Below, piece by piece: positions 24,612-44,800 of a DNA stretch of 64,000 nt. The notes under the pieces are model-generated. The model saw nothing but the letters and a program-made list of their open reading frames with translations, ran no database searches and was not told where the DNA came from. Every line of letters starts with the position of its first letter. Positions within the stretch are counted from its first letter, which is position 1. The position numbers and the translations under genes are program-made. Source of the DNA: Candidatus Micrarchaeota archaeon (GTDB lineage Archaea > Micrarchaeota > Micrarchaeia > Anstonellales > Bilamarchaeaceae); NCBI GenBank assembly GCA_040754495.1, contig JBFMCO010000028.1:1-64000 (forward strand), read 5' to 3'.

Positions 24612-24908
24612 GCAGGGGTTGCCGAGTGGTCAAAGGCGCCAGATTCAGGTGCGCTTCCCTATTGAAACGATGTTTCAATGGGGCCCAAAGAACGGTTCGC
24701 CGTTCTTTGTGGTTTGGAAAAAAGCGCCCAAAAACGGGCTGTTGAAAAATCCTTCCGGATTTTTTTGCAAGTCAGTTTTGGGCCGCCTCGTCGAGAACGG
24801 CGTTCCGTTCTCGATGCGCAAGAACGCTTCGCGTTCTTGGCTGTTTCCTAAAAGGCGGAAACGTCTGGTCGGTTAGTCCGTTCGAGAGTTCAAATCTCTT
24901 CCCCTGCA
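24612..24908 (+). tRNA. tRNA-Leu(CAG) with 213-nt intron at 37/38 (24650-24862)
   Basis: 5' exon GCAGGGG...CCAGA TT CAG G; 3' exon G TCTGG...GTTCAAATCTCTTCCCCTGCA; relaxed BHB (TTCA/GGAA, bulges GG|T and AC|G). Confidence 0.9.
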
Positions 24909-24928
24909 TATACTCTTTCTTAAGTTGG

Positions 24929-25249
24929 TCAAAAGCACACGACCTTATCGCTCTTCTTTACCAGTGCGTACAGGTCTTTCAATGAGGAGATGGGGCATAA
25001 ATTATCGCCTTCTTTGTTCCTCAGCTTAAGGCAGGTACCGCACGCGAGAATGATACCGCCTGCCGACGCAAATTTTTCTGCCTCGTCCTTTGCAGGGAAT
25101 TTCTCAGTGCTTATCTCCTCATAGTCGACGGCTTTGCCCACAAGGAAAACCCTTACTTCGTCGCCTTCTTTTTTCGAGAAGTTCGCAAGCCTGAAGGCAT
25201 TCCAGGCAGCCTCTATATCGCTGGTCGAAATCACGATTCCAAGTTCCAT
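24929..25249 (-). CDS. DsrE/DsrF-family protein
   Basis: AWNAFRLAN, VRVFLVGKAV, ILACGTCLKLR, CPIS. Confidence 0.88.
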   Translation of the reverse strand: MELGIVISTSDIEAAWNAFRLANFSKKEGDEVRVFLVGKAVDYEEISTEKFPAKDEAEKFASAGGIILACGTCLKLRNKEGDNLCPISSLKDLYALVKKSDKVVCF

Positions 25250-25262
25250 GTCAATCACCTGG

Positions 25263-25883
25263 TCATTCCAGGTCCTTCTTCATCTCTTCATATTGTTTTT
25301 TTGCTATCTCTCCCCGCGCATATCTCTGCTTAAGGATCTCTGAAGCCGTAAGCGCCCTGCTAGTCCCGGTAACGCTCCGGTAAAGCCAGAATATGGCCAG
25401 AATAAGCGCGACAAACACCAATACCCAAAACACAAGGCCGACTATCCAGCCCCAGCCGCCATACCCCATCATGTCGTAACCCATCATTCCGCCGTAAGGG
25501 TAATTCATCATGCCGCCTCCAAATCCTGATCCATAGCCACCGAACCTGCCCATCATGGGCATCATGCCCATCATGCCGCCGTATGTGACGCTCGTATTCG
25601 TTTGCCCGCAGTAGAGCACAAGCGCCATCTGTACATGCGCCTGCTCAAGGCTTGCAGAGCCTTCGCCGCCCATCATCTGGTCCATAGCCTCATGGGCTTG
25701 CCCCGGATGCATCTGCTCCATAAAATATTCGCCGATTAGTTCAAGCTGCTCCTGGCTGAGCTTGTCGCAGCTGATATTGGAATCGATAAGCTGTTTCGAA
25801 GCGGTGGCGTCCTCAGTGCTCATTGTCGCGAATAAAGGAACCGCAAGCGCCATGACCAGCATCATCATTAGAAACTGCTTCAT
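25263..25883 (-). CDS. Met/Gly-rich membrane protein with C-terminal SHOCT domain
   Basis: Signal peptide, HEAMDQMMGG, GMMG repeats, TM helix, ILKQRYARGEIAKKQYEEMK. Confidence 0.88.
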   Translation of the reverse strand: MKQFLMMMLVMALAVPLFATMSTEDATASKQLIDSNISCDKLSQEQLELIGEYFMEQMHPGQAHEAMDQMMGGEGSASLEQAHVQMALVLYCGQTNTSVTYGGMMGMMPMMGRFGGYGSGFGGGMMNYPYGGMMGYDMMGYGGWGWIVGLVFWVLVFVALILAIFWLYRSVTGTSRALTASEILKQRYARGEIAKKQYEEMKKDLE

Positions 25884-26215
25884 TCTATCACCTCGGATGC
25901 GCCGGCTAAATCCCTCATCTGCTTCAATCTCTCGCTTAAAATTTCGCGGATGATATCAAACGCCTTTATGATTTTAGGGTTAGCGAGGCGATAGTAGATA
26001 TTCACTCCCTTCCTTTTAGGCACAAGAATGCCCCTGCTTTTCATTATGGTCAGGTGCTGGGAGACATTCGACTGGCTCAGATTCGTTTTCCTTGTCAGTT
26101 CGGAAACTGTCAGCTCGCCGTTGCGCAGAAGGTTTAATACCTCAAGTCTTGTAGGGCTGGAAAAGACCTTGCACATGTCGGCATGCAACCGATAAATCTC
26201 TTTATCCATAGACAT
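25880..26215 (-). CDS. ArsR/SmtB-family transcriptional regulator
   Basis: SSPTRLEVL, ELTVSEL, SQSNVSQHL, YYRL. Confidence 0.92.
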   Translation of the reverse strand: MSMDKEIYRLHADMCKVFSSPTRLEVLNLLRNGELTVSELTRKTNLSQSNVSQHLTIMKSRGILVPKRKGVNIYYRLANPKIIKAFDIIREILSERLKQMRDLAGASEVIE

Positions 26216-26240
26216 TAGGATATTCTAATAAGTTTAATAA
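26214..26240 (-). promoter_or_regulatory. Putative ArsR operator palindrome and TATA box of a leaderless transcript
   Basis: ATTAGGATATTCTAAT (26214-26229) near-perfect palindrome overlapping the start codon; TTATTAAA on minus strand about 20 nt upstream. Confidence 0.55.
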
Positions 26241-26451
26241 CCATTCATGTCGCTCGAATCCAGCACTGCTGCCGGACTTGGGGGAAGAAACCGAAAAAAG
26301 GCTTAAATCCTCTGCCCCTCGTCTGTCCTGCAGCGCTTTGGCTTAAACCCAGGCTCACAGAACGGCTCCGGGATACCCCGTATCCTTTTCTATGCCTAAG
26401 GCTAGGGGTATTGAATTCCAGAAGCGTCATTCTATGCTTTCGCGAACGCCT

Positions 26452-26646
26452 TCAGAGTTTTTTCACGTTCTTGGCGCGCGGCCCGCGCTCGCTTTGCTCG
26501 ACTTCGTATTCCACGGCATCGCCGGCTGCGAGCACTGCGCCGCCTTCAATTGCCGAGGTGTGCACATACACGTCCTTGCCGTCGTCGCCCGTGATAAATC
26601 CGAAGCTCCGTGCGGCGTTGAACATCTTTACTTTTCCTTTCATCAT
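26452..26646 (-). CDS. cspA: Cold-shock protein
   Basis: KGKVKMFN..RSFGFIT, DVYVHTSAI, RGPRAKNV. Confidence 0.95.
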   Translation of the reverse strand: MMKGKVKMFNAARSFGFITGDDGKDVYVHTSAIEGGAVLAAGDAVEYEVEQSERGPRAKNVKKL

Positions 26647-26812
26647 ATCACCTTCGTTTCATCTTACCTGCAAGGAATGTAGATGCAGAGGGTATAAAAC
26701 ATCTAGCGATGCCATCACCATTTTATTTTTAGCCCGCGAAATCAGGAACGGATGAACCAAAGCCCCTATGAACGGACTACAAACCCAAGCTGGTGAGGGG
26801 CGGCGGGGACTG

Positions 26813-26850
26813 GTTTCCGCCTTTTAGTAAAAGGCGGCCCAAAACGGGCC
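26813..26850. repeat. Double-hairpin palindromic element related to tRNA intron sequences; may terminate glmU
   Basis: CCGCCTTTTAGTAAAAGGCGG plus GCCCAAAACGGGC directly after the glmU stop. Confidence 0.75.
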
Positions 26851-26851
26851 G

Positions 26852-28084
26852 TTAAACGTCCTCCTCGAACTTGCCGAACTCAATTGGCTGCCTTGTATAG
26901 ACGCGCGAGCCTGAGGGCACGTTCTTGTTCACCACGACTCCTGAATGAATCCAGCAGTTCGAGCCGATCAGCTTGCCCGGCATCGTGCAGGAGAGCACGC
27001 CGAATTTCGTGTTGTCGCCGACGAAAACGCCAAGCTTCTTCTTGCCTGAATTCGCCCATCCCCTCTCCGTGAGGACGTTCACGTTGTCGCCGTCGAAGCG
27101 GAAATTCGCGATTTGCGTGCCTGAGCCGAAATTGACATTCTCGCCTATCACGCTGTCGCCAATATAGGTGAGATGCTTGGCATTGACGGAATCAAGAAGG
27201 ATGCTGCTTTTCACCGTGCTGCCCGGGCCGATTGAGCAGTTCTTCCCGATGCTGTTGAATCCCCGCAGGCATGCGTTCGGGCCTATGACCGTGTTTTCCC
27301 CTAGGTATGCGCACCCTTCCACGTAGCTGTTGATGATTCTCGCGCCCTTCTCCATGATTACCTTCCCTTCAATCGTGGAATTCTCGATGTGCCCGCTTTT
27401 CGCTTCCATCCCGGACAGCAGGTGCTCGTTCGCCTCGAGCAGGTCCCACGGGTACGCGATGTCCCGCCAGTAGCCTTCAACGGGCACGCCTTTCGCGCCG
27501 ACAAAAAGGCTCACCAGCTCGTACTCGCCGCGCTCGGATTTCCCGAGGGATTTGAGCTCGCTGAACACGGTAGGCTCCATGCAGTATACCGAGAGGTTCG
27601 CGAGGTCGCTCTTCGGGTGCGCGGACTTCTCCTCGAAAAGGCTTATCCGCCCGCCCGAGAGCTCTGCCACGCCGTAGTTGTGCGGGTTCGCGACCTTCTT
27701 GAGGCCGACCGTGATTCCGCCCTCGTGCGCCTCCATGACCGCATTCATCACCGAAGCTTCGGTCACGATGTCGCCGGCAAGGGCAAGGAAGGTGTCGTCC
27801 AGCAGCTCCTGCGCGCACAGCAGCGCCGCGCCGGTGCCGTTGTCTGAGCCCTGCTCGACGAATTCGAGTTTCAGCCCGAGCCCGGCACTGGAAAGGTATT
27901 CGATGAGCTTCTCCTTCATGTGACGGACGACCACGACCGCCTCCTTCACCCCGGCCTTCTTCGCCTCGAGGAGAAGGTGGTGGATGATTGGCCTGCCGCC
28001 GGCGTAGAGCATGGGCTTGGGCCTCGTCTCGGTCAGGGGTCGCAGGCGCATGCCGTCCCCGGCTGCAAGAATCACGGCTTTCAT
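26852..28084 (-). CDS. glmU: Bifunctional sugar-1-phosphate nucleotidyltransferase/acetyltransferase (archaeal GlmU type)
   Basis: MKAVILAAGDGMRLRPLTETRPKP, hexapeptide repeats, KHLTYIGDSVIG. Confidence 0.9.
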   Translation of the reverse strand: MKAVILAAGDGMRLRPLTETRPKPMLYAGGRPIIHHLLLEAKKAGVKEAVVVVRHMKEKLIEYLSSAGLGLKLEFVEQGSDNGTGAALLCAQELLDDTFLALAGDIVTEASVMNAVMEAHEGGITVGLKKVANPHNYGVAELSGGRISLFEEKSAHPKSDLANLSVYCMEPTVFSELKSLGKSERGEYELVSLFVGAKGVPVEGYWRDIAYPWDLLEANEHLLSGMEAKSGHIENSTIEGKVIMEKGARIINSYVEGCAYLGENTVIGPNACLRGFNSIGKNCSIGPGSTVKSSILLDSVNAKHLTYIGDSVIGENVNFGSGTQIANFRFDGDNVNVLTERGWANSGKKKLGVFVGDNTKFGVLSCTMPGKLIGSNCWIHSGVVVNKNVPSGSRVYTRQPIEFGKFEEDV

Positions 28085-28178
28085 GTTTCTCCCGATGGTA
28101 AAATCCGCGACTGTGTTTAAGTTATTTGTGATATATCAACATAATCATTTATAAACTGTAACAAACAAATCAGCACCT

Positions 28179-29024
28179 ATGCCGGGGAGGAAGAGGCTTG
28201 CTTACGGGGATGGGGAGGGGGTGGAGGCGCGGAGGCCGAAGCTCATCAGGACGCTTGTTTTCGGCTCAGCTTTTTTTGCGGCCATGACCGCGTGCACTCC
28301 ATGCACCAATGCCGTGCCAATAAGGGAACCCGCGGTGGAGAGGCCGCGCAGGGCGCCGCCTGCCACGGAAAGCGCAGGGCATGCCGAGAGCCCAGGGGCG
28401 CCTTCATGCAGGTTCAGCGGGAGAACGCTTGAGTATTCCACCAATGATACCGTCATGAGGCTGGTCAATCTGCTCGATAGCGGCGAGAGCGTGAGGGAGG
28501 TAATTTGCCGCAGGGACCGCGCTTTCGTGCTCACAGACACAAGCCGCATAATCGTGCGGCCGGGCTCCGGCAACCAGTTGCCTGATGGGGACGGGACAGC
28601 CATAAGCCATTTAGCGTCTTACACGCGGACGGATATGGCCGGGCTGAATTCGAGGGGCATCGTGGACTGGGAGGCAACGGATTCTGCCTGCTATTTCCTC
28701 ACCAGGGACAGGAGGCTGACGGTGCTCGCGAACGACGAGCTCGGGGATACGGTTCCCGAATACGAGCTTCCCTTCGACACGGCGGGCCTCGGCCGCAACA
28801 GGATGGCCTTCCACTCGGGGTTCATTTTCATAGCGCCGCTTTCCGGGAGCGCGGTAGTGATGTCTTTCGGGGAGAACGCGGGGGCCTCTTACCTGCCGCT
28901 CGAATCAGCCGACAGGAGGGCGGGGTTCATAGTGAGGGGGGACAGGCTGTTCTTCGGAAAAAACGGAAAGGAAAAAGAGATAATAATAGGCGGGCCTGAT
29001 GCGCACGACGTCAGCGTCAGATGA
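28179..29024 (+). CDS. Membrane-anchored/secreted hypothetical protein, beta-rich
   Basis: 281-aa ORF with hydrophobic segment LVFGSAFFAAMTAC. Confidence 0.65.
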   Translation: MPGRKRLAYGDGEGVEARRPKLIRTLVFGSAFFAAMTACTPCTNAVPIREPAVERPRRAPPATESAGHAESPGAPSCRFSGRTLEYSTNDTVMRLVNLLDSGESVREVICRRDRAFVLTDTSRIIVRPGSGNQLPDGDGTAISHLASYTRTDMAGLNSRGIVDWEATDSACYFLTRDRRLTVLANDELGDTVPEYELPFDTAGLGRNRMAFHSGFIFIAPLSGSAVVMSFGENAGASYLPLESADRRAGFIVRGDRLFFGKNGKEKEIIIGGPDAHDVSVR

Positions 29025-29735
29025 CTAGCCGCGCTCGCGCTCCGCCCTGCTTCTCCACCGGACATCTATTCGGCTGATGACATCAAGGTCCGGGGTTTCG
29101 CCCCTGGCGTGCGCGCTGGCGAACTCCCTCTGGATGGCCACGTACGCAGGCCTCGCGGCGGCCATGAACTGGTCCCGGGTAAGCATGACTTCCCTGCCCT
29201 GGGCGTCGGTCGTGGTTATCCGGAAGTCGCTCGGCGCCGCGCTTTCGAGGTAGGTTATGAGCCTGCCGCCCTTCGTCTGGTCCGCGCGCGTCATGGTACC
29301 GCTCCACCTCAGGTCCCGGTTCGCGTCTATGGTATATGTCCGGCCGTCCACCGTGACCTCGTAGGAATGCCTGTGCGTCATGACCGGCGCGGGAGGCGTC
29401 CTGAGGGTGATTTCCGGCGAGATGTTCCGGATGCCGAGGTTCCTGTTGAGAAGCCTGCGGGCCTCGTCGAACCTCTTGTTGAGGCGGTGGTTGAGGATTT
29501 CGTTAAGCCTCGTAGCCACATTCATGAAGTCGCCTTGGGCCATGTAGGGCGGAACTACGACCCCCTCCCTTCCCCTTGCCACCTGGTCGGCGCGGGTGTA
29601 AATCTCACGCGCCTGCAGCGGGGAATATCCGAGCGCCTGCAACTGGGATATAACGGTCCTCTGGACCTCCTGCTGGGTAAGCCCCGTTGTCTCTTCCGCT
29701 CCTCCTCTCCTCCTCTGGGCTGGTGCTCCTGTCAT
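29025..29735 (-). CDS. Arg/Gln-rich hypothetical protein, tandem paralog 1 (MTGAPAQRR)
   Basis: RBS AGGTG; PVMT...YEVTVDGRTY matches the neighbouring paralogs. Confidence 0.75.
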   Translation of the reverse strand: MTGAPAQRRRGGAEETTGLTQQEVQRTVISQLQALGYSPLQAREIYTRADQVARGREGVVVPPYMAQGDFMNVATRLNEILNHRLNKRFDEARRLLNRNLGIRNISPEITLRTPPAPVMTHRHSYEVTVDGRTYTIDANRDLRWSGTMTRADQTKGGRLITYLESAAPSDFRITTTDAQGREVMLTRDQFMAAARPAYVAIQREFASAHARGETPDLDVISRIDVRWRSRAERERG

Positions 29736-29744
29736 AATAACACC

Positions 29745-30401
29745 TCACGGGTTCCTCGTCCGCCTGCCCTGCTGGGGCGCCATGGCGATGCGTATGTCCG
29801 GCCGCTCCACGTACTGGCCGTTCGTGTAGGTCCTTCCGACATAATCGTCGCGGAAGATGTCGAGCCTCTGGTTCGGCGCGCCTGAGTTGAATGCGGCCGA
29901 TTCGGCATCCCTTCCGACGCGCGTAACCTGCGCATACACGACCTGCCCTCCGCTTTCCACGAGCTTGTTGTTGAGGAGGAGGTCGTGGAGGATGGCCCTT
30001 GCGGCAACTTCATCCACCCTGCCGTTCGGCCTTGTCGGGAGGGGGTCCGGAAGGGCGACCTGGTAGGTCCTGTTGCCGAGCGTGACTTCATACACAGTAG
30101 CTTGGGTCATGCGTGGAGCCGGCCTTGGCTGCTGCGTCGGGGCCGGAGGCTGCGCCCTCTGCGGCACGGGCGAGAGCTGGGTGGGCTGCTGGCCGAGCTG
30201 CCGGGCAACCTCCTTCAGGCGCTCGGCTGCCTCCGCAAGGCGCTCGCTCTGCTCCATGAGCCTGCGCGCCTGGCTTGGCGGGATGGGCGAGCGAATCGGC
30301 GACAGGGCGTTTGCGATGTCCATCAGGGCGTCCCTTACCACCCTCAGCGTTCTATCCTGCTCCGTTTCCCGTTCTGGCCTTCTTTGTGCTGGTCCCGTCA
30401 T
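29745..30401 (-). CDS. Arg/Gln-rich hypothetical protein, tandem paralog 2 (MTGPAQRR)
   Basis: RBS AGGTGA; C-terminal region near-identical to paralog 3. Confidence 0.8.
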   Translation of the reverse strand: MTGPAQRRPERETEQDRTLRVVRDALMDIANALSPIRSPIPPSQARRLMEQSERLAEAAERLKEVARQLGQQPTQLSPVPQRAQPPAPTQQPRPAPRMTQATVYEVTLGNRTYQVALPDPLPTRPNGRVDEVAARAILHDLLLNNKLVESGGQVVYAQVTRVGRDAESAAFNSGAPNQRLDIFRDDYVGRTYTNGQYVERPDIRIAMAPQQGRRTRNP

Positions 30402-30410
30402 CAAATCACC

Positions 30411-31025
30411 TTAAGGATTCCTCGTCCGCCTGCCCTGCTGGGGCGCCATGGCGATGCGTATGTCCGGCCGCTCCACGTACTGGCCGTTCGTGTAGGTCCT
30501 TCCGACATAATCGTCGCGGAAGATGTCGAGCCTCTGGTTCGGCGCGCCTGAGTTGAATGCGGCCGATTCGGCATCCCTTCCGACGCGCGTAACCTGCGCA
30601 TACACGGCCTGCCCTCCGCTCTCGACAAGCCTGTTGTTGAGGAGGAGGTCGTGGAGGATGGCCCTTGCGGCCACTTCATCGACCTGGCCGCTGCGGGTGG
30701 TCGGGAGGGCCTGGGGAAGGGCGACCTGGTAGGTCCTGTTCCCGAGGTTGACCTGATAGACGAATGCCTGCGTCATCTGTGGTGCCGGCCTCGGCTGCTG
30801 GACCGGACCGGCCTGCTGGGGCGTCTTCTGCGGCACGGGCGAGGGGCGGCTCAGAAGGTTCTCGATTGTGTTGAGAAGCTCCCGCAGCGCGTCCCTTAAG
30901 CGCTCCAGTACCGGCCTCGGAGGCGGCCTGATTTGCACTTCCTGCCTAAATCTCTCGAGCGCCTCCGGATTGATCGTTATTACATGCTGCTCCGCTTCAG
31001 GTCTTCTTTGTGCGGGTCCAGTCAT
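30411..31025 (-). CDS. Arg/Gln-rich hypothetical protein, tandem paralog 3 (MTGPAQRR)
   Basis: 189-bp identity with paralog 2 at the 3' end; divergent helical N-terminus. Confidence 0.8.
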   Translation of the reverse strand: MTGPAQRRPEAEQHVITINPEALERFRQEVQIRPPPRPVLERLRDALRELLNTIENLLSRPSPVPQKTPQQAGPVQQPRPAPQMTQAFVYQVNLGNRTYQVALPQALPTTRSGQVDEVAARAILHDLLLNNRLVESGGQAVYAQVTRVGRDAESAAFNSGAPNQRLDIFRDDYVGRTYTNGQYVERPDIRIAMAPQQGRRTRNP

Positions 31026-31088
31026 AATATCACACAAAATGTATATTCGAAGAGAAGATTTTTTAACAGGCTTAGTATCAGATATGAT

Positions 31089-32132
31089 ATGCTTGAGCGA
31101 AAGAGGGTAGAGGACATACTATCCGGCTACAGGAAATTCAAGATTGCGACCATCTGCTCGCACTCCTCCCTCCAGATATTCAAGGGCGCAAGGGAGGAGG
31201 GGATAAAGACCATCGGCATCGTGCAGAAGGACAAGCGCAAGCTGTACGAGTCTTTTCCCCTTGGGCGGCCGGACGAATTCATCGAGGTGGACAGCTACGG
31301 GGACATACCGTTCGATTACCTCGTGGACGAGGAAGCGATAGTCATCCCTCACGGCTCGTTCGTGGAATACGTGGGGCAGGCTTTCGACGACATGGAAGTC
31401 CCGGTCTACGGCAACCGCGCCAGCATCGCGTGGGAGCGGAGCCGCGAGAAGATGTTCCAGTGGATAAGGAAGGCCGGCATCAAGACGCCCCGGACGTTCA
31501 AGCCCGACGAGATAGACGGGCCGGTCATGGTGAAGTTTCCGGGCGCCAAGGGCGGCAGGGGCTATATCATCGTGCGGTCGGAGAAGGAGTTTCGGGAAAA
31601 GGTCGGCGCTGACCGCGAGTGCATGATACAGGAGTTCCTGATAGGGGTCCGCGCGTACCCTCATTACTTCTTCAGCCCGTTCAAGAACCGCGGCTACGAG
31701 ACGAAGCAGGGGGAGCTCGAGCTTCTCGGCGTAGACAGGAGGGTGGAGAGCAGCGCAGACGAGATTGCGCGCGCGGTCTCGCTCGGGATGGAGCCGCACA
31801 TGGCTTTCACGGTCATAGGAAACGAGCCCCTGGTCCTCCGCGAATCGCTCCTCTCCGAGTACATGGAGATAGGGCGGATGATAAGCGAGACCTCCTTCGA
31901 CCTCTTCGGGGGCCTGATAGGGCCCTTCTGTGTCGAGACCATAATAACCGAGGAGCTGGAGATATACGCCTTTGAAATCAGCGCGCGCATCGTCGCCGGG
32001 ACGAACGTATATCCGGAGGGCTCGCCGTATTCGGTCTATTATTACAAGGAGCCGATGAGCGCGGGCAGGCGCATCGCCAAGGAGCTGAAGAAAGCGGCAA
32101 GGGCGAAGAAGCTCAAGCAGATAGTATACTGA
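31089..32132 (+). CDS. purP: FAICAR synthetase PurP
   Basis: IATICSHSSLQI, VIPHGSFVEYVG, VIGNEPLVLRESLL, FEISARIVAGTN. Confidence 0.93.
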   Translation: MLERKRVEDILSGYRKFKIATICSHSSLQIFKGAREEGIKTIGIVQKDKRKLYESFPLGRPDEFIEVDSYGDIPFDYLVDEEAIVIPHGSFVEYVGQAFDDMEVPVYGNRASIAWERSREKMFQWIRKAGIKTPRTFKPDEIDGPVMVKFPGAKGGRGYIIVRSEKEFREKVGADRECMIQEFLIGVRAYPHYFFSPFKNRGYETKQGELELLGVDRRVESSADEIARAVSLGMEPHMAFTVIGNEPLVLRESLLSEYMEIGRMISETSFDLFGGLIGPFCVETIITEELEIYAFEISARIVAGTNVYPEGSPYSVYYYKEPMSAGRRIAKELKKAARAKKLKQIVY

Positions 32133-32836
32133 TGGTCAGGATGGCAAGGGACAGCAGACCGGTGCATATCGCGATAATTCCTGACGGAAATCGCAGATGG
32201 GCCGAGAGGAAGGGCATAAGCAAGCGCGAGGGCTACGCCATAGGGATACGCAAGATAGGCGACGTCCTCAAGTGGTGCAAGGCCAGGAACGTCCGCATGC
32301 TCACCATGTGGGGCTTCTCCACCGACAACTTCAAGCGCGACAAGGAGGAGGTCGGCGAGCTTTTCGGCCTTTTCAAGGAGAACCTGGGGAAGGCGATAGA
32401 GAGCGACGACCGGAACAAAAAGGAGTTGCGGGTGCGCTTTTTCGGCCGGCTGCACCTGTTCCCGAAAGAGATGCAGGACATGATAAGGAAGGCCGAAGAG
32501 GTGACCTCTTCCGGAGACCGCAAGTACCAGCTCAACCTCCTGCTTTCGTACGGCGGCCGCGAGGAGATTGTCGATGCGGTCAACAGGATAATCGCGGAAG
32601 GCATCCGGGAAGTGGACGAAGACGGGATAAGCAGCCATCTTTACACGAAAGGCGTCCCGGACCCGGACCTGATAATAAGGACGTCGGGCGAGCAGAGGCT
32701 CTCAGGCCTGATGCCGTGGCAGAGCTGTTACAGCGAATTCTATTTCTGCAAAAAGCTCTGGCCGGACTTCTCCAGAAGGGATTTCGACTCGGCCCTGAAG
32801 GAGTACGCAAGGAGAAGAAGGAGATACGGCAGGTGA
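32132..32836 (+). CDS. uppS: cis-prenyltransferase (undecaprenyl diphosphate synthase family)
   Basis: HIAIIPDGNRRWA, FSTDNFKR, DLIIRTSGEQRLSG, LWPDF, RRYG. Confidence 0.95.
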   Translation: MVRMARDSRPVHIAIIPDGNRRWAERKGISKREGYAIGIRKIGDVLKWCKARNVRMLTMWGFSTDNFKRDKEEVGELFGLFKENLGKAIESDDRNKKELRVRFFGRLHLFPKEMQDMIRKAEEVTSSGDRKYQLNLLLSYGGREEIVDAVNRIIAEGIREVDEDGISSHLYTKGVPDPDLIIRTSGEQRLSGLMPWQSCYSEFYFCKKLWPDFSRRDFDSALKEYARRRRRYGR

Positions 32837-32843
32837 GAAAGGC

Positions 32844-33272
32844 TCACTTATGGAGCCCACTGTACCTGTCGCGGTAGCGGCGCATCATGTCGTCCACGCT
32901 GTTCGCCTGGTCGATTGCGAAGAGCACCTTCGATGCCATGAACAGGAGCACGACCGGCAGGAGGAGAAGGGCCCGCGCGGTCAGGCTGTCCTCCACCACC
33001 ATGAGGGCGACGAAAAGGAACATCCCCAGGCCGACGATGAAGTGCATCTTCGATATCAGCGCAAGGAGGAAGCTGAAGGGGCCGTCCTTCTTTTTGTTGT
33101 CGGCATCTGAAAACTCGATATGACCTGAGGCGAGAGCCGCGAGCACCCCGGTCTCAGGATGCGCAGCCCTGTCGTCGAGAGCCGAGGAGAGGCACATTGC
33201 GGCGAGGATGACGAGAACGGGTGCCAGGTGCCATATATTAACCACTGGGGGCTCAGAAATGCTAGTGGTCAT
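32844..33272 (-). CDS. Hypothetical membrane protein
   Basis: Three hydrophobic segments; start uncertain. Confidence 0.6.
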   Translation of the reverse strand: MTTSISEPPVVNIWHLAPVLVILAAMCLSSALDDRAAHPETGVLAALASGHIEFSDADNKKKDGPFSFLLALISKMHFIVGLGMFLFVALMVVEDSLTARALLLLPVVLLFMASKVLFAIDQANSVDDMMRRYRDRYSGLHK

Positions 33273-33402
33273 ATAAGTGTATAAATGACCGGCAAGAGTT
33301 TTTTAATTTCATGCTTACTTTTATGGGATGGAAGTTACTTTTTGGGAAGCCCTGCGGGTAATGGAATCGCTTATAAAAACTACCATCAAACAACCCTATC
33401 AT

Positions 33403-33620
33403 GCCGCAGTAGCTCAGTGGGAGAGCACACCCGGTTCTTTTAGGCATTGTTCTGCTGAAAGAATCTGTGAAGCTGAAGACTCTCAGTGAGTCGGAGGCCC
33501 TTTTCGGGCTGCCTTATCAAGGCAGAAACGGTGGGGTCGCTTGTTCAATGCGCTTTTTTAGTAAAAAAGCGCCCAAAAAACGGGCTTGCTAAAACGCGCG
33601 GACAAATCAGGCCTGCGGCA
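33403..33620 (+). tRNA. tRNA-Phe(GAA) with three introns: 30/31 (33432-33471), 37/38 (33479-33527), 58/59 (33549-33605)
   Basis: Splices to GCCGCAG TA GCTC AGTGGGA GAGC A CACCG CT GAA GA CGGTG GGGTC GCTTG TTCAAAT CAGGC CTGCGGC A; BHB-type motifs at all three junctions. Confidence 0.88.
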
Positions 33621-44691: not shown

Positions 44692-44800
44692 GGGCCCGTG
44701 TGGCAACCTGGATAACCGGCAGGGCTTCGGATGCCTTTGACCGATTGCGGTCTTTTGCTGGAGCCACCCTGAGATGCGGGTTCAAATCCCGTCGGGCCCG
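44692..44800 (+). tRNA. tRNA-Arg(TCG) with 35-nt intron at 37/38 (44731-44765)
   Basis: GGGCCCG/CGGGCCC acceptor, CAGGG/CCCTG stem, CT TCG G|...|A loop, BHB CTTC/GGAG, GTTCAAATC T-loop. Confidence 0.88.

Follow-up and report, generated by a model that had tools for sequence, protein, structure and literature searches.

In the Thermoproteales, a 'transposition' of tRNA introns has been deduced from the similarity of introns to one another, and the passages of PMC4090602 and PMC3239211 that relay this work name no vehicle for it (Fujishima et al. 2010, Mol Biol Evol 27:2233). In Candidatus Micrarchaeum acidiphilum ARMAN-2, many tRNAs carry one to three introns, located in the D-loop, the anticodon and the T-loop, and the three-unit epsilon-2 splicing endonuclease (EndA) of this organism cleaves strict as well as relaxed bulge-helix-bulge (BHB) motifs in vitro (PMC3239211). 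Among bacterial palindromic repeats, Rickettsia felis holds 728 Rickettsia palindromic elements (RPEs), 85 of which are located within open reading frames (ORFs) and 3 in RNA genes (PMC1166351). A 2026 census of Asgard tRNA introns, in which copying, mobile elements and reverse transcription were tested, found no general route (10.64898/2026.10.13.758758). Here, we describe a short palindromic element which recurs in introns of tRNA-Leu(CAG) and tRNA-Phe(GAA), and outside introns, in a 64,000-nucleotide stretch of the Candidatus Micrarchaeota contig JBFMCO010000028.1 (assembly GCA_040754495.1); this whole stretch is called the window below. The element is one homologous, structure-constrained module. 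On balance, we favour the view that it is a building block of a family of protein-spliced (BHB) tRNA introns, which is gained, lost and exchanged at the DNA level and is occasionally deposited outside introns. In a full-text search of the literature, neither a palindromic intron module in Micrarchaeota nor copies of one outside tRNA genes were found described.

The window is contig C28 of a metagenome-assembled genome (MAG) of 1.63 Mb in 72 contigs, with 59.5% G+C and a completeness of about 80% (label G000). An original prediction, made from the letters of the window, had quoted related strings in the third intron of tRNA-Phe, in the spacer at 26817-26850 and in blocks of the tRNA-Leu intron. 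All of these strings were found in place, and the proposal that a single palindromic module is shared by introns at 37/38 and 58/59 and by a site outside introns was borne out by the profile E-values and by the controls of the anchor search given below. The element is a two-hairpin unit of about 35-45 nt. Hairpin 1 starts with 4-5 variable, covarying base pairs, followed by T4-6, a loop of 3 nt and A4-6 (for example CCGCC-TTTT-AGT-AAAA-GGCGG). After hairpin 1 comes CCCAAAAC-GGGC(C), which would either fold into a local hairpin 2 or pair with a far inverted partner.

When an nhmmer profile was built from six clean copies, five from other contigs and the sixth being the spacer copy of the window, about 29 non-overlapping matches were obtained in the genome at E<0.01, the best with an E-value of about 3e-13. 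A second, stem-agnostic anchor (T4-7, short loop, A4-8, five free bases, CAAAAC) gave 34 matches in the genome, whereas neither the reversed genome nor any of five block shuffles yielded one. The matches thus lie far above chance, and the element is abundant beyond the window. Covariation was measured on the anchor hits, which replaced the nhmmer alignment since the latter was seed-biased and truncated. In the 5-nt flanks of these hits, 162 of 170 positions were paired, against 104.5±6.0 (maximum 127) in 1000 partner shuffles, and 14 versions of the stem were found, including CCGCC/GGCGG, GCGCC/GGCGC, GAAAC/GTTTC, CCAAC/GTTGG and GCACC/GGTGC. Furthermore, the loop, the spacing, the CCCAAAAC motif and the motif CCAAAAC/GTTTTGG were kept in 36/36 strict hairpins of the genome.

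Most of these hairpins are located within tRNA genes (about 25 of the 36); about 10 follow the end of a gene, 1 is within a coding sequence and 1 within an operon. ARAGORN with introns allowed found 32 tRNAs in the genome, the majority of them interrupted, and about 25 copies of the element stand at exon-intron borders of some 20 tRNA genes, in the D-loop, at 37/38 or in the T-loop. The default ARAGORN run misses all of the interrupted tRNAs of the window, where two tRNAs alone exceed the Rfam gathering thresholds; together, default ARAGORN and Rfam recover just the tRNAs that are uninterrupted or carry a short intron. Among 79 exact archaeal copies taken from other Micrarchaeota MAGs, at least 60 adjoin a recognisable tRNA exon edge, as judged by eye.

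Within the introns, the orientation of the module follows a rule: a sense copy begins at the 5' splice site and an inverted copy finishes at the 3' splice site. The 60 or more exact copies at exon edges in the other MAGs conform to one or the other arrangement. The full-length layout, read 5' to 3', consists of hairpin 1, an L-arm (CCCAAAAC-NGNCT), a central hairpin (sometimes two), an R-arm (AGNCN-GTTTTGGG), hairpin 1' and GAAA. It was recognised in at least 10 tRNAs, including Trp, two Glu, Gly, Gln, Ile and a Val-like one, and at least 10 full-length introns have the central hairpin. Half introns are common, either with the inverted 3' half alone (Lys, Thr and one further tRNA) or with the sense 5' half alone (the third intron of tRNA-Phe and several D-loop and T-loop introns). 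More hairpin modules are nested inside the loops of full-length introns, and the lengths of the introns range from 50 to 250 nt. A GAAA(C) tail is common to many 37/38 introns.

The intron of tRNA-Leu(CAG) in the window was described in the original prediction as an inverted dimer of the element with hairpin insertions. This layout is real, although it is not special to tRNA-Leu, being the usual full-length layout of the family. The two inverted blocks, of which the first contains GTTTTGGGCCGCCT at 24775-24788, score weakly when taken singly (nhmmer E=0.045 and 1.5), being separated by an insert; without it, they match the spacer copy in 29/39 alignment columns (29/33 gap-free), the remainder being gaps. 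The insert that splits them is found again at the same place in a tRNA intron at G000:C50:13444-13707, and the two-hairpin insert of the sense half occurs also in the second intron of tRNA-Phe of two sister genomes. In the minimum free energy (MFE) fold, the ends of the intron (CGCUU/AGGCG) pair beside the splice sites and the L-arm pairs with the R-arm.

Comparison with sister genomes, as had been suggested with the prediction, revealed that the introns of tRNA-Leu(CAG) and the third intron of tRNA-Phe vary in presence and absence. In 13 sister genomes, tRNA-Leu(CAG) is intronless, and the sequences are identical to the joined exons of the window. In three others (G024, G050 and G011), the 37/38 intron is about 55 nt long and consists of a sense module and a tail of about 20 nt. 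A segment of each tail complements the opening bases of the module, and the two sides covary (GCGC/GCGC, CCGC/GCGG and CCGCC/GGCGG). In G050 and G011, the UGAA that follows is complementary to positions 32-35 (UUCA), which would give a textbook helix-BHB-helix motif (hBHBh'). The module is present in a D-loop intron of tRNA-Leu(CAG) in G011, G006 and G018, and G010 has a D-loop intron of another family. Exact-protein look-ups of neighbouring genes gave nothing useful on strain-level empty sites.

For tRNA-Phe(GAA), which has three introns, exon boundaries were set by hand to ±1-2 nt; the limits could be fixed because the anticodon stem covaries among orthologues (CACC/GGTG versus CTCC/GGAG), and the joined exons give a canonical cloverleaf. 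Introns 1 (30/31) and 2 (37/38) are common to about 20 sister genomes. In addition to what had been predicted, a degenerate inverted copy of the module was found in intron 2, and most genomes close this intron with an inverted module. The module is canonical and at the same place at loci L054, L058 and L063, and it has covarying AT-rich stems at L066 and L069. In two genomes it holds a nested double-hairpin insert, and in four an unrelated short hairpin stands instead of the module.

Intron 3 (58/59) is present in 3 of about 20 genomes, namely the window genome, G041 and G006, the interior being a different module in the latter two. In the window, its tail carries a GCGC that would form helix h' with the element's first GCGC, a GGAC that would form the central 4-bp helix with the exon GUUC, and AA as the 3' bulge. 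By hand, the intron can be drawn as a canonical hBHBh' motif (GUUC/GGAC, bulges AA|U and AA|A, h' GCGC/GCGC), and the MFE fold contains UGCGC/GCGCG. When this 58/59 intron was compared with the 37/38 intron of tRNA-Leu(CAG) in G024, 50 of 57 positions were identical (88%); it is therefore the same intron in another tRNA, at another position and in another genome.

The original prediction had offered the element as a source or a cargo of tRNA introns, and both hold. The module is a source, supplying the whole of new introns, because the short introns of tRNA-Leu(CAG) consist of the module and a tail of about 20 nt opposite intronless orthologues. It is also an exchangeable part of old introns, or cargo, because the orthologous intron 2 of tRNA-Phe carries the module, no module or nested versions of it.

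Table 1. Element copies and associated features of the window (positions counted from its first letter)
Feature	Position	Strand	Evidence or remark
tRNA-Leu(CAG) gene; exons 24612-24649, 24863-24908	24612-24908	+	ARAGORN with introns
Leu(CAG) intron at 37/38, 213 nt	24650-24862	+	
Left arm of hairpin 1 (TGCGCTT), sense copy	24650-24656	+	Start identical in Phe intron 3 and in the G024 Leu(CAG) intron
Nested double-hairpin insert in the loop of hairpin 1	24657-24717	+	Recurs in introns on C4, C56, C59 and C50
Right arm of hairpin 1 and hairpin 2/L-arm (GCCCAAAAACGGGCT; string AAAAAAGCGCCCAAAAACGGGCT)	24718-24740	+	nhmmer E=5.4e-6; regex match
Leu central hairpin, closing with a 7-T run at 24760-24766	24744-24766	+	Read from sequence
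Inverted copy, first block: R-arm and one arm of hairpin 1'	24770-24788	-	3-mismatch match
Second nested double-hairpin insert (GAGAACG.../AAGAACG... hairpins)	24789-24847	+	
Inverted copy, second block (CTAAAAGGCGGAAAC): other arm of hairpin 1' and GAAAC tail at 3' splice site	24848-24862	-	
Candidate small-RNA gene, about 65 nt, unannotated	26750-26814	+	TATA-like box 26720-26732
Non-intron element copy (core 26817-26850), 37 nt	26815-26851	+	nhmmer E=3.7e-12
Convergent ORF, GlmU-like sugar-nucleotidyltransferase with hexapeptide repeats	26852-28084	-	Stop codon 1 nt from element
tRNA-Phe(GAA) gene, three introns; exons 33403-33431, 33472-33478, 33528-33548, 33606-33620	33403-33620	+	By hand
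Phe intron 2 (37/38)	33479-33527	+	Orthologous intron in all of about 20 sister genomes compared
Degenerate inverted copy closing Phe intron 2 (GCCCTTTTCGGGC, TGCCTTATCAAGGCA, GAAAC)	33494-33527	-	3-mismatch match
Phe intron 3 (58/59), 57 nt	33549-33605	+	
Sense element copy from the first base of Phe intron 3 (start 33549/50)	33549-33586	+	nhmmer E=1.4e-6
Phe intron 3 tail	33595-33605	+	Read by hand

The spacer copy of the window, which had been predicted to lie free between genes, is indeed outside introns; it is not free, however, since its 37 nt take up the whole interval from the 3' end of a conserved candidate small-RNA gene to the stop codon of an ORF that converges on it (Table 1). This small-RNA candidate, just before the copy, had not been noticed in the prediction. 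All 12 sister loci that were fetched hold it too, at 74-90% identity. Upstream of it stands a TTTATA-like box, the sequence includes a K-turn-like motif (GCCCC-nAU-GA ... UGA-GGGGC), and its 3' terminus, GGGGACTGGT, does not vary. The region of the small RNA and the element matched no Rfam family, and the small RNA fits neither the C/D nor the H/ACA layout. Among the 12 sister loci, the element is clear in 2, in one of them with a covarying stem (GCAC/GTGC), and a remnant is left in 1; the other 9 have unrelated T-rich sequence in its place. Downstream synteny at this locus is not kept among the sister genomes.

Other copies follow stable-RNA genes. On contig C61, the element lies directly 3' of the RNase P RNA (C61:336-643, minus strand; element region 180-335, L279), which Rfam recognises with an E-value of 1e-19 and a score short of the gathering threshold. 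About 130 nt downstream, 17 nt of its 3' end (GACTATGCCCCTCACTT) are repeated; the element may have been inserted with a duplication, or there may be an intron close to helix P1. Three tRNAs are likewise followed immediately by a copy (C22:18774, C14:44072 and C23:10340), the tRNA-Gly case being seen again in another MAG. Downstream of that tRNA-Gly(GCC) (G000:C23:10330-10490, minus strand) come, in order, 39 nt of spacer, a repeat of the final 20 nt of the tRNA (TTCAATTCCCGGCGGTCGCA) and the element, and the 20-nt duplication is att-like in look. Both direct repeats, of 17 nt at the RNase P RNA and of 20 nt at tRNA-Gly, flank larger and different inserts.

Copies are also associated with protein genes. 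One stands between the rpl23 stop and the rpl2 start, and others come after ORF stops on C29 and C16. A first description of the C29 case as tandem small ORFs was dropped, the repeat being a longer one, of 25 nt plus the element, beside unrelated ORFs. On the minus strand of contig C14, the element is inserted in frame in pyrF, which codes for orotidine-5'-phosphate decarboxylase (G000:C14:17188-17222, L079, in the ORF C14:16871-17698), where its 33 nt encode RLLGKGAPKRG in a loop. The insertion is present in 2 of 21 orthologues, in this genome and in G018, the latter not being the nearest relative. The possibility that this copy is an mRNA intron was rejected, as inspection by hand found no downstream complement to the first bases of the element and hence no BHB. 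The copy is probably translated, as an in-frame loop insertion of 11-13 amino acids.

A 24-nt pattern of the element matched in 18 of 24 genomes of the same genus and in 0 of 16 genomes of other families, and the reversed pattern gave 0 matches in the same set. With the stem-agnostic pattern, the element turned up in 35 of the 39 sister genomes belonging to the genus and was abundant (up to 50 copies) in three other genera of the family; the remaining genera of the family and all other families of the order stayed at background level. Exact copies are nearly confined to MAGs deposited as Candidatus Micrarchaeota or Micrarchaeia. Introns built from the element are restricted to a small number of genera within a single Micrarchaeota family, the Bilamarchaeum group. 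Two exact pattern matches were observed in a gut MAG, 'uncultured Ruminococcaceae bacterium UMGS1591' (L111 and L159; USCI01000081.1 and USCI01000008.1). They have a common flank of their own (TTTTGTGCAC...) and are probably an unrelated terminator-like repeat.

Several other repeats were noticed around the tRNA genes. A second intron module (GACGGCGCCGATATATGGCGACGGA) recurs across tRNAs and genomes (G000:C9:27396-27523; L050 and L052 in Phe intron 3; L266 in a Leu D-loop intron). Arrays of a GGAAACC/GGTTTCC heptad are located beside and within tRNA genes, for example at G000:C16:10930-10990 and C23:10150-10230, and also in the introns of the tRNAs at C22:56228 and C31:48520. Another tRNA of the window (44692-44800, plus strand) has a short intron of about 35 nt without the element and is followed by a GC-rich hairpin (CTCGCTTACGCTCGCG-like), which recurs after several element copies.

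In the mechanism that we propose for the building-block view, the outermost 4-5 nt of the module would give up their local pairing and pair instead with the opposite end of the intron, forming helix h', which flanks the splice-site bulges, and the tail of a short intron would pair with the exon in the central 4-bp helix. The broad-specificity splicing endonuclease of the genome would then cut the insertion out; PF01974, the EndA domain, gave two hits above cut-off, in ORFs of 421 and 268 aa, and the related ARMAN-2 enzyme accepts relaxed as well as strict motifs (PMC3239211). Copies would be gained, lost and exchanged by DNA-level copying or recombination, which is the simplest account of their spread and a likely one. 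Now and then, the element would come to rest outside introns, immediately downstream of stable-RNA or protein genes, with one in-frame case in pyrF.

A number of observations weigh against this view. Many 37/38 introns that end in GGCGGAAA yielded no strict BHB when drawn by hand, and the BHB of tRNA-Leu(CAG) in the window is relaxed, with a central helix of 3 bp and an A·G. Filled and empty Leu(CAG) sites differ by the exact intron alone, without duplicated bases, and no mobilising enzyme, target duplication or donor was identified. On the sense strand, intron 3 of tRNA-Phe contains a T6 run (33554-33559), the Leu intron a T7 run (Table 1), and other central hairpins end in T5-T7. T-runs of such length resemble archaeal termination signals. 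They are difficult to square with a pre-tRNA transcribed in one piece, and none of the readings accounts for them. All placed copies outside introns and coding sequences are in sense orientation, 0-3 nt past a gene end, which hints at a function. Finally, the similarity of the copies could be kept by selection for RNA or protein binding rather than reflect recent copying.

Possibly, the module is more than a building block, and we put forward tentatively that it is a non-autonomous palindromic DNA element which serves as the vehicle of tRNA intron gain. Its ends would build the helix beside the BHB, so that the host endonuclease would remove the element from the RNA. Elsewhere, it would survive just where it is harmless, past the 3' ends of genes or, in frame, in a tolerant protein loop. 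By nested self-insertion, introns would grow from about 55 nt to more than 200 nt.

The main rival to the building-block view, which we regard as unlikely, is that the module is a functional signal kept by selection, such as a bidirectional terminator, a 3'-end hairpin or a site for an RNA-processing protein, and that it marks the ends of RNA segments. It accounts well for the place of the copies that follow the small RNA, the RNase P RNA, the three tRNAs, rpl23 and the ORFs on C29 and C16, for the T-runs on both strands and for the window copy, which fits the convergent gene pair exactly; covariation preserves the hairpin, and the T/A core and the loop are constant. However, both orientations are used inside introns, and copies are present in frame in pyrF and within a ribosomal-protein operon, where termination would hurt. 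A general terminator was in fact rejected on the distribution of the strict hairpins given above, about 10 of 36 following a gene end. With some 35 copies, nearly all in tRNA genes, the other genes do without the element as a terminator; moreover, 9 of the 12 sister small-RNA loci lack it, and it is missing from most related genera.

A movement at the RNA level appears improbable. On this reading, introns that had been excised or circularised would enter other RNAs by reverse splicing and then reach DNA again through reverse transcription or recombination, with the free copies as by-products. Consistent with this scheme, copies begin or end exactly at splice junctions, the same intron is found at 37/38 and at 58/59, and the insertions are exact, without target duplication. 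Against it, no RVT_1 reverse transcriptase was found in the approximately 80% complete genome, an RNA intermediate would not readily give rise to half modules or inverted copies, and the pyrF copy has no downstream BHB partner.

The original prediction had called the element REP/MITE-like and had pointed to IS200-like enzymes. That it is a repetitive extragenic palindromic (REP) or palindrome-associated transposable element (PATE) moved by a Y1 transposase, of the IS200/IS605 or REP-associated tyrosine transposase (RAYT) type, is now largely refuted and very improbable. The hairpin architecture, the presence of TnpB genes and that of Y1 genes in some genomes of the genus speak for it. However, Y1 (PF01797) gave 0 hits in this genome, occurred in 9 of the 40 genomes in the genus and was not found in 30 of the 39 sister genomes searched, including the copy-rich G011, G021 and G022. 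Ten Y1 loci fetched from seven genomes showed no element beside them, save for a coincidence in G018:C1, where the proximity was dismissed since the element belongs to the adjoining tRNA-Trp intron. The assembly has four TnpB-like genes (C66:1722-1919, C5:28975-29172, C46:48913-49107 and C53:7361-7546) and no Y1 TnpA, and none of the four loci is close to an element copy; a paper on circular omega-RNA (PMC12558985) provided no link to the element. The label of miniature inverted-repeat transposable element (MITE) is unproven as well: the full-length introns do have inverted ends, the Leu(CAG) gain sites show no target-site duplication, and neither viral contigs, which gave 0 exact element matches, nor the TnpB loci provided an autonomous partner. 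That the matches are chance or convergent A/T-run hairpins without a common origin is scarcely credible: the sequences are short and of low complexity and two similar hairpins occur in a bacterial MAG, but this reading is refuted by the reversed and shuffled controls (0 matches against 34) and disagrees with E-values down to 3e-13, with a motif, loop and spacing constant in 36/36 and with the restriction to a single lineage.

How tRNA introns arrive in archaeal genes is an open question, for which the palindromic module offers a concrete lead. This lineage combines a sharply defined palindromic unit, many filled and empty orthologous sites and copies outside tRNA genes, including a protein-coding one; with these three features together, DNA-level insertion is directly testable. 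In addition, the intronic T6-T7 runs raise the question of how interrupted tRNA genes are transcribed, and the finding draws attention to an unannotated, conserved K-turn small-RNA candidate.

The likeness to the Thermoproteales, as far as the passages of the two sources cited for them go, lies in closely similar introns across tRNA types and positions, as in this genome, in a splicing endonuclease of broad specificity and in a gain thought to occur at the DNA level. In contrast, the introns described here belong to a different phylum (DPANN Micrarchaeota), and what they have in common is a short palindromic module that occurs in either orientation, as a half, as an inverted pair or with nested inserts. 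Here, copies also stand at the 3' ends of RNA genes, between two genes of an operon and within a coding sequence, and those same passages report no copies outside tRNA genes (PMC4090602, PMC3239211). With ARMAN-2, the genome shares its phylum, heavily interrupted tRNAs and, by its 421-aa ORF, a long EndA. However, the introns of ARMAN-2 are short (13-25 nt in the examples given) compared with those of this genome, and a text search of PMC3239211 found no shared intron sequences or palindromic modules described for that organism. The REP/RAYT system and IS200/IS605-derived elements (PATEs, MITEs) resemble the module as short hairpin repeats, present in tens per genome and in both orientations. 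Unlike them, it has no linked Y1 transposase and no target duplication at Leu(CAG), and it resides mostly inside tRNA genes. The RPEs, reportedly the work of Ogata et al. 2000, are likewise small palindromic repeats found in non-coding DNA, in RNA genes and in frame in protein genes. They are bacterial, unrelated in sequence and longer, whereas the main target here is tRNA genes, from which the insert would be removed by splicing, with a single case in coding sequence.

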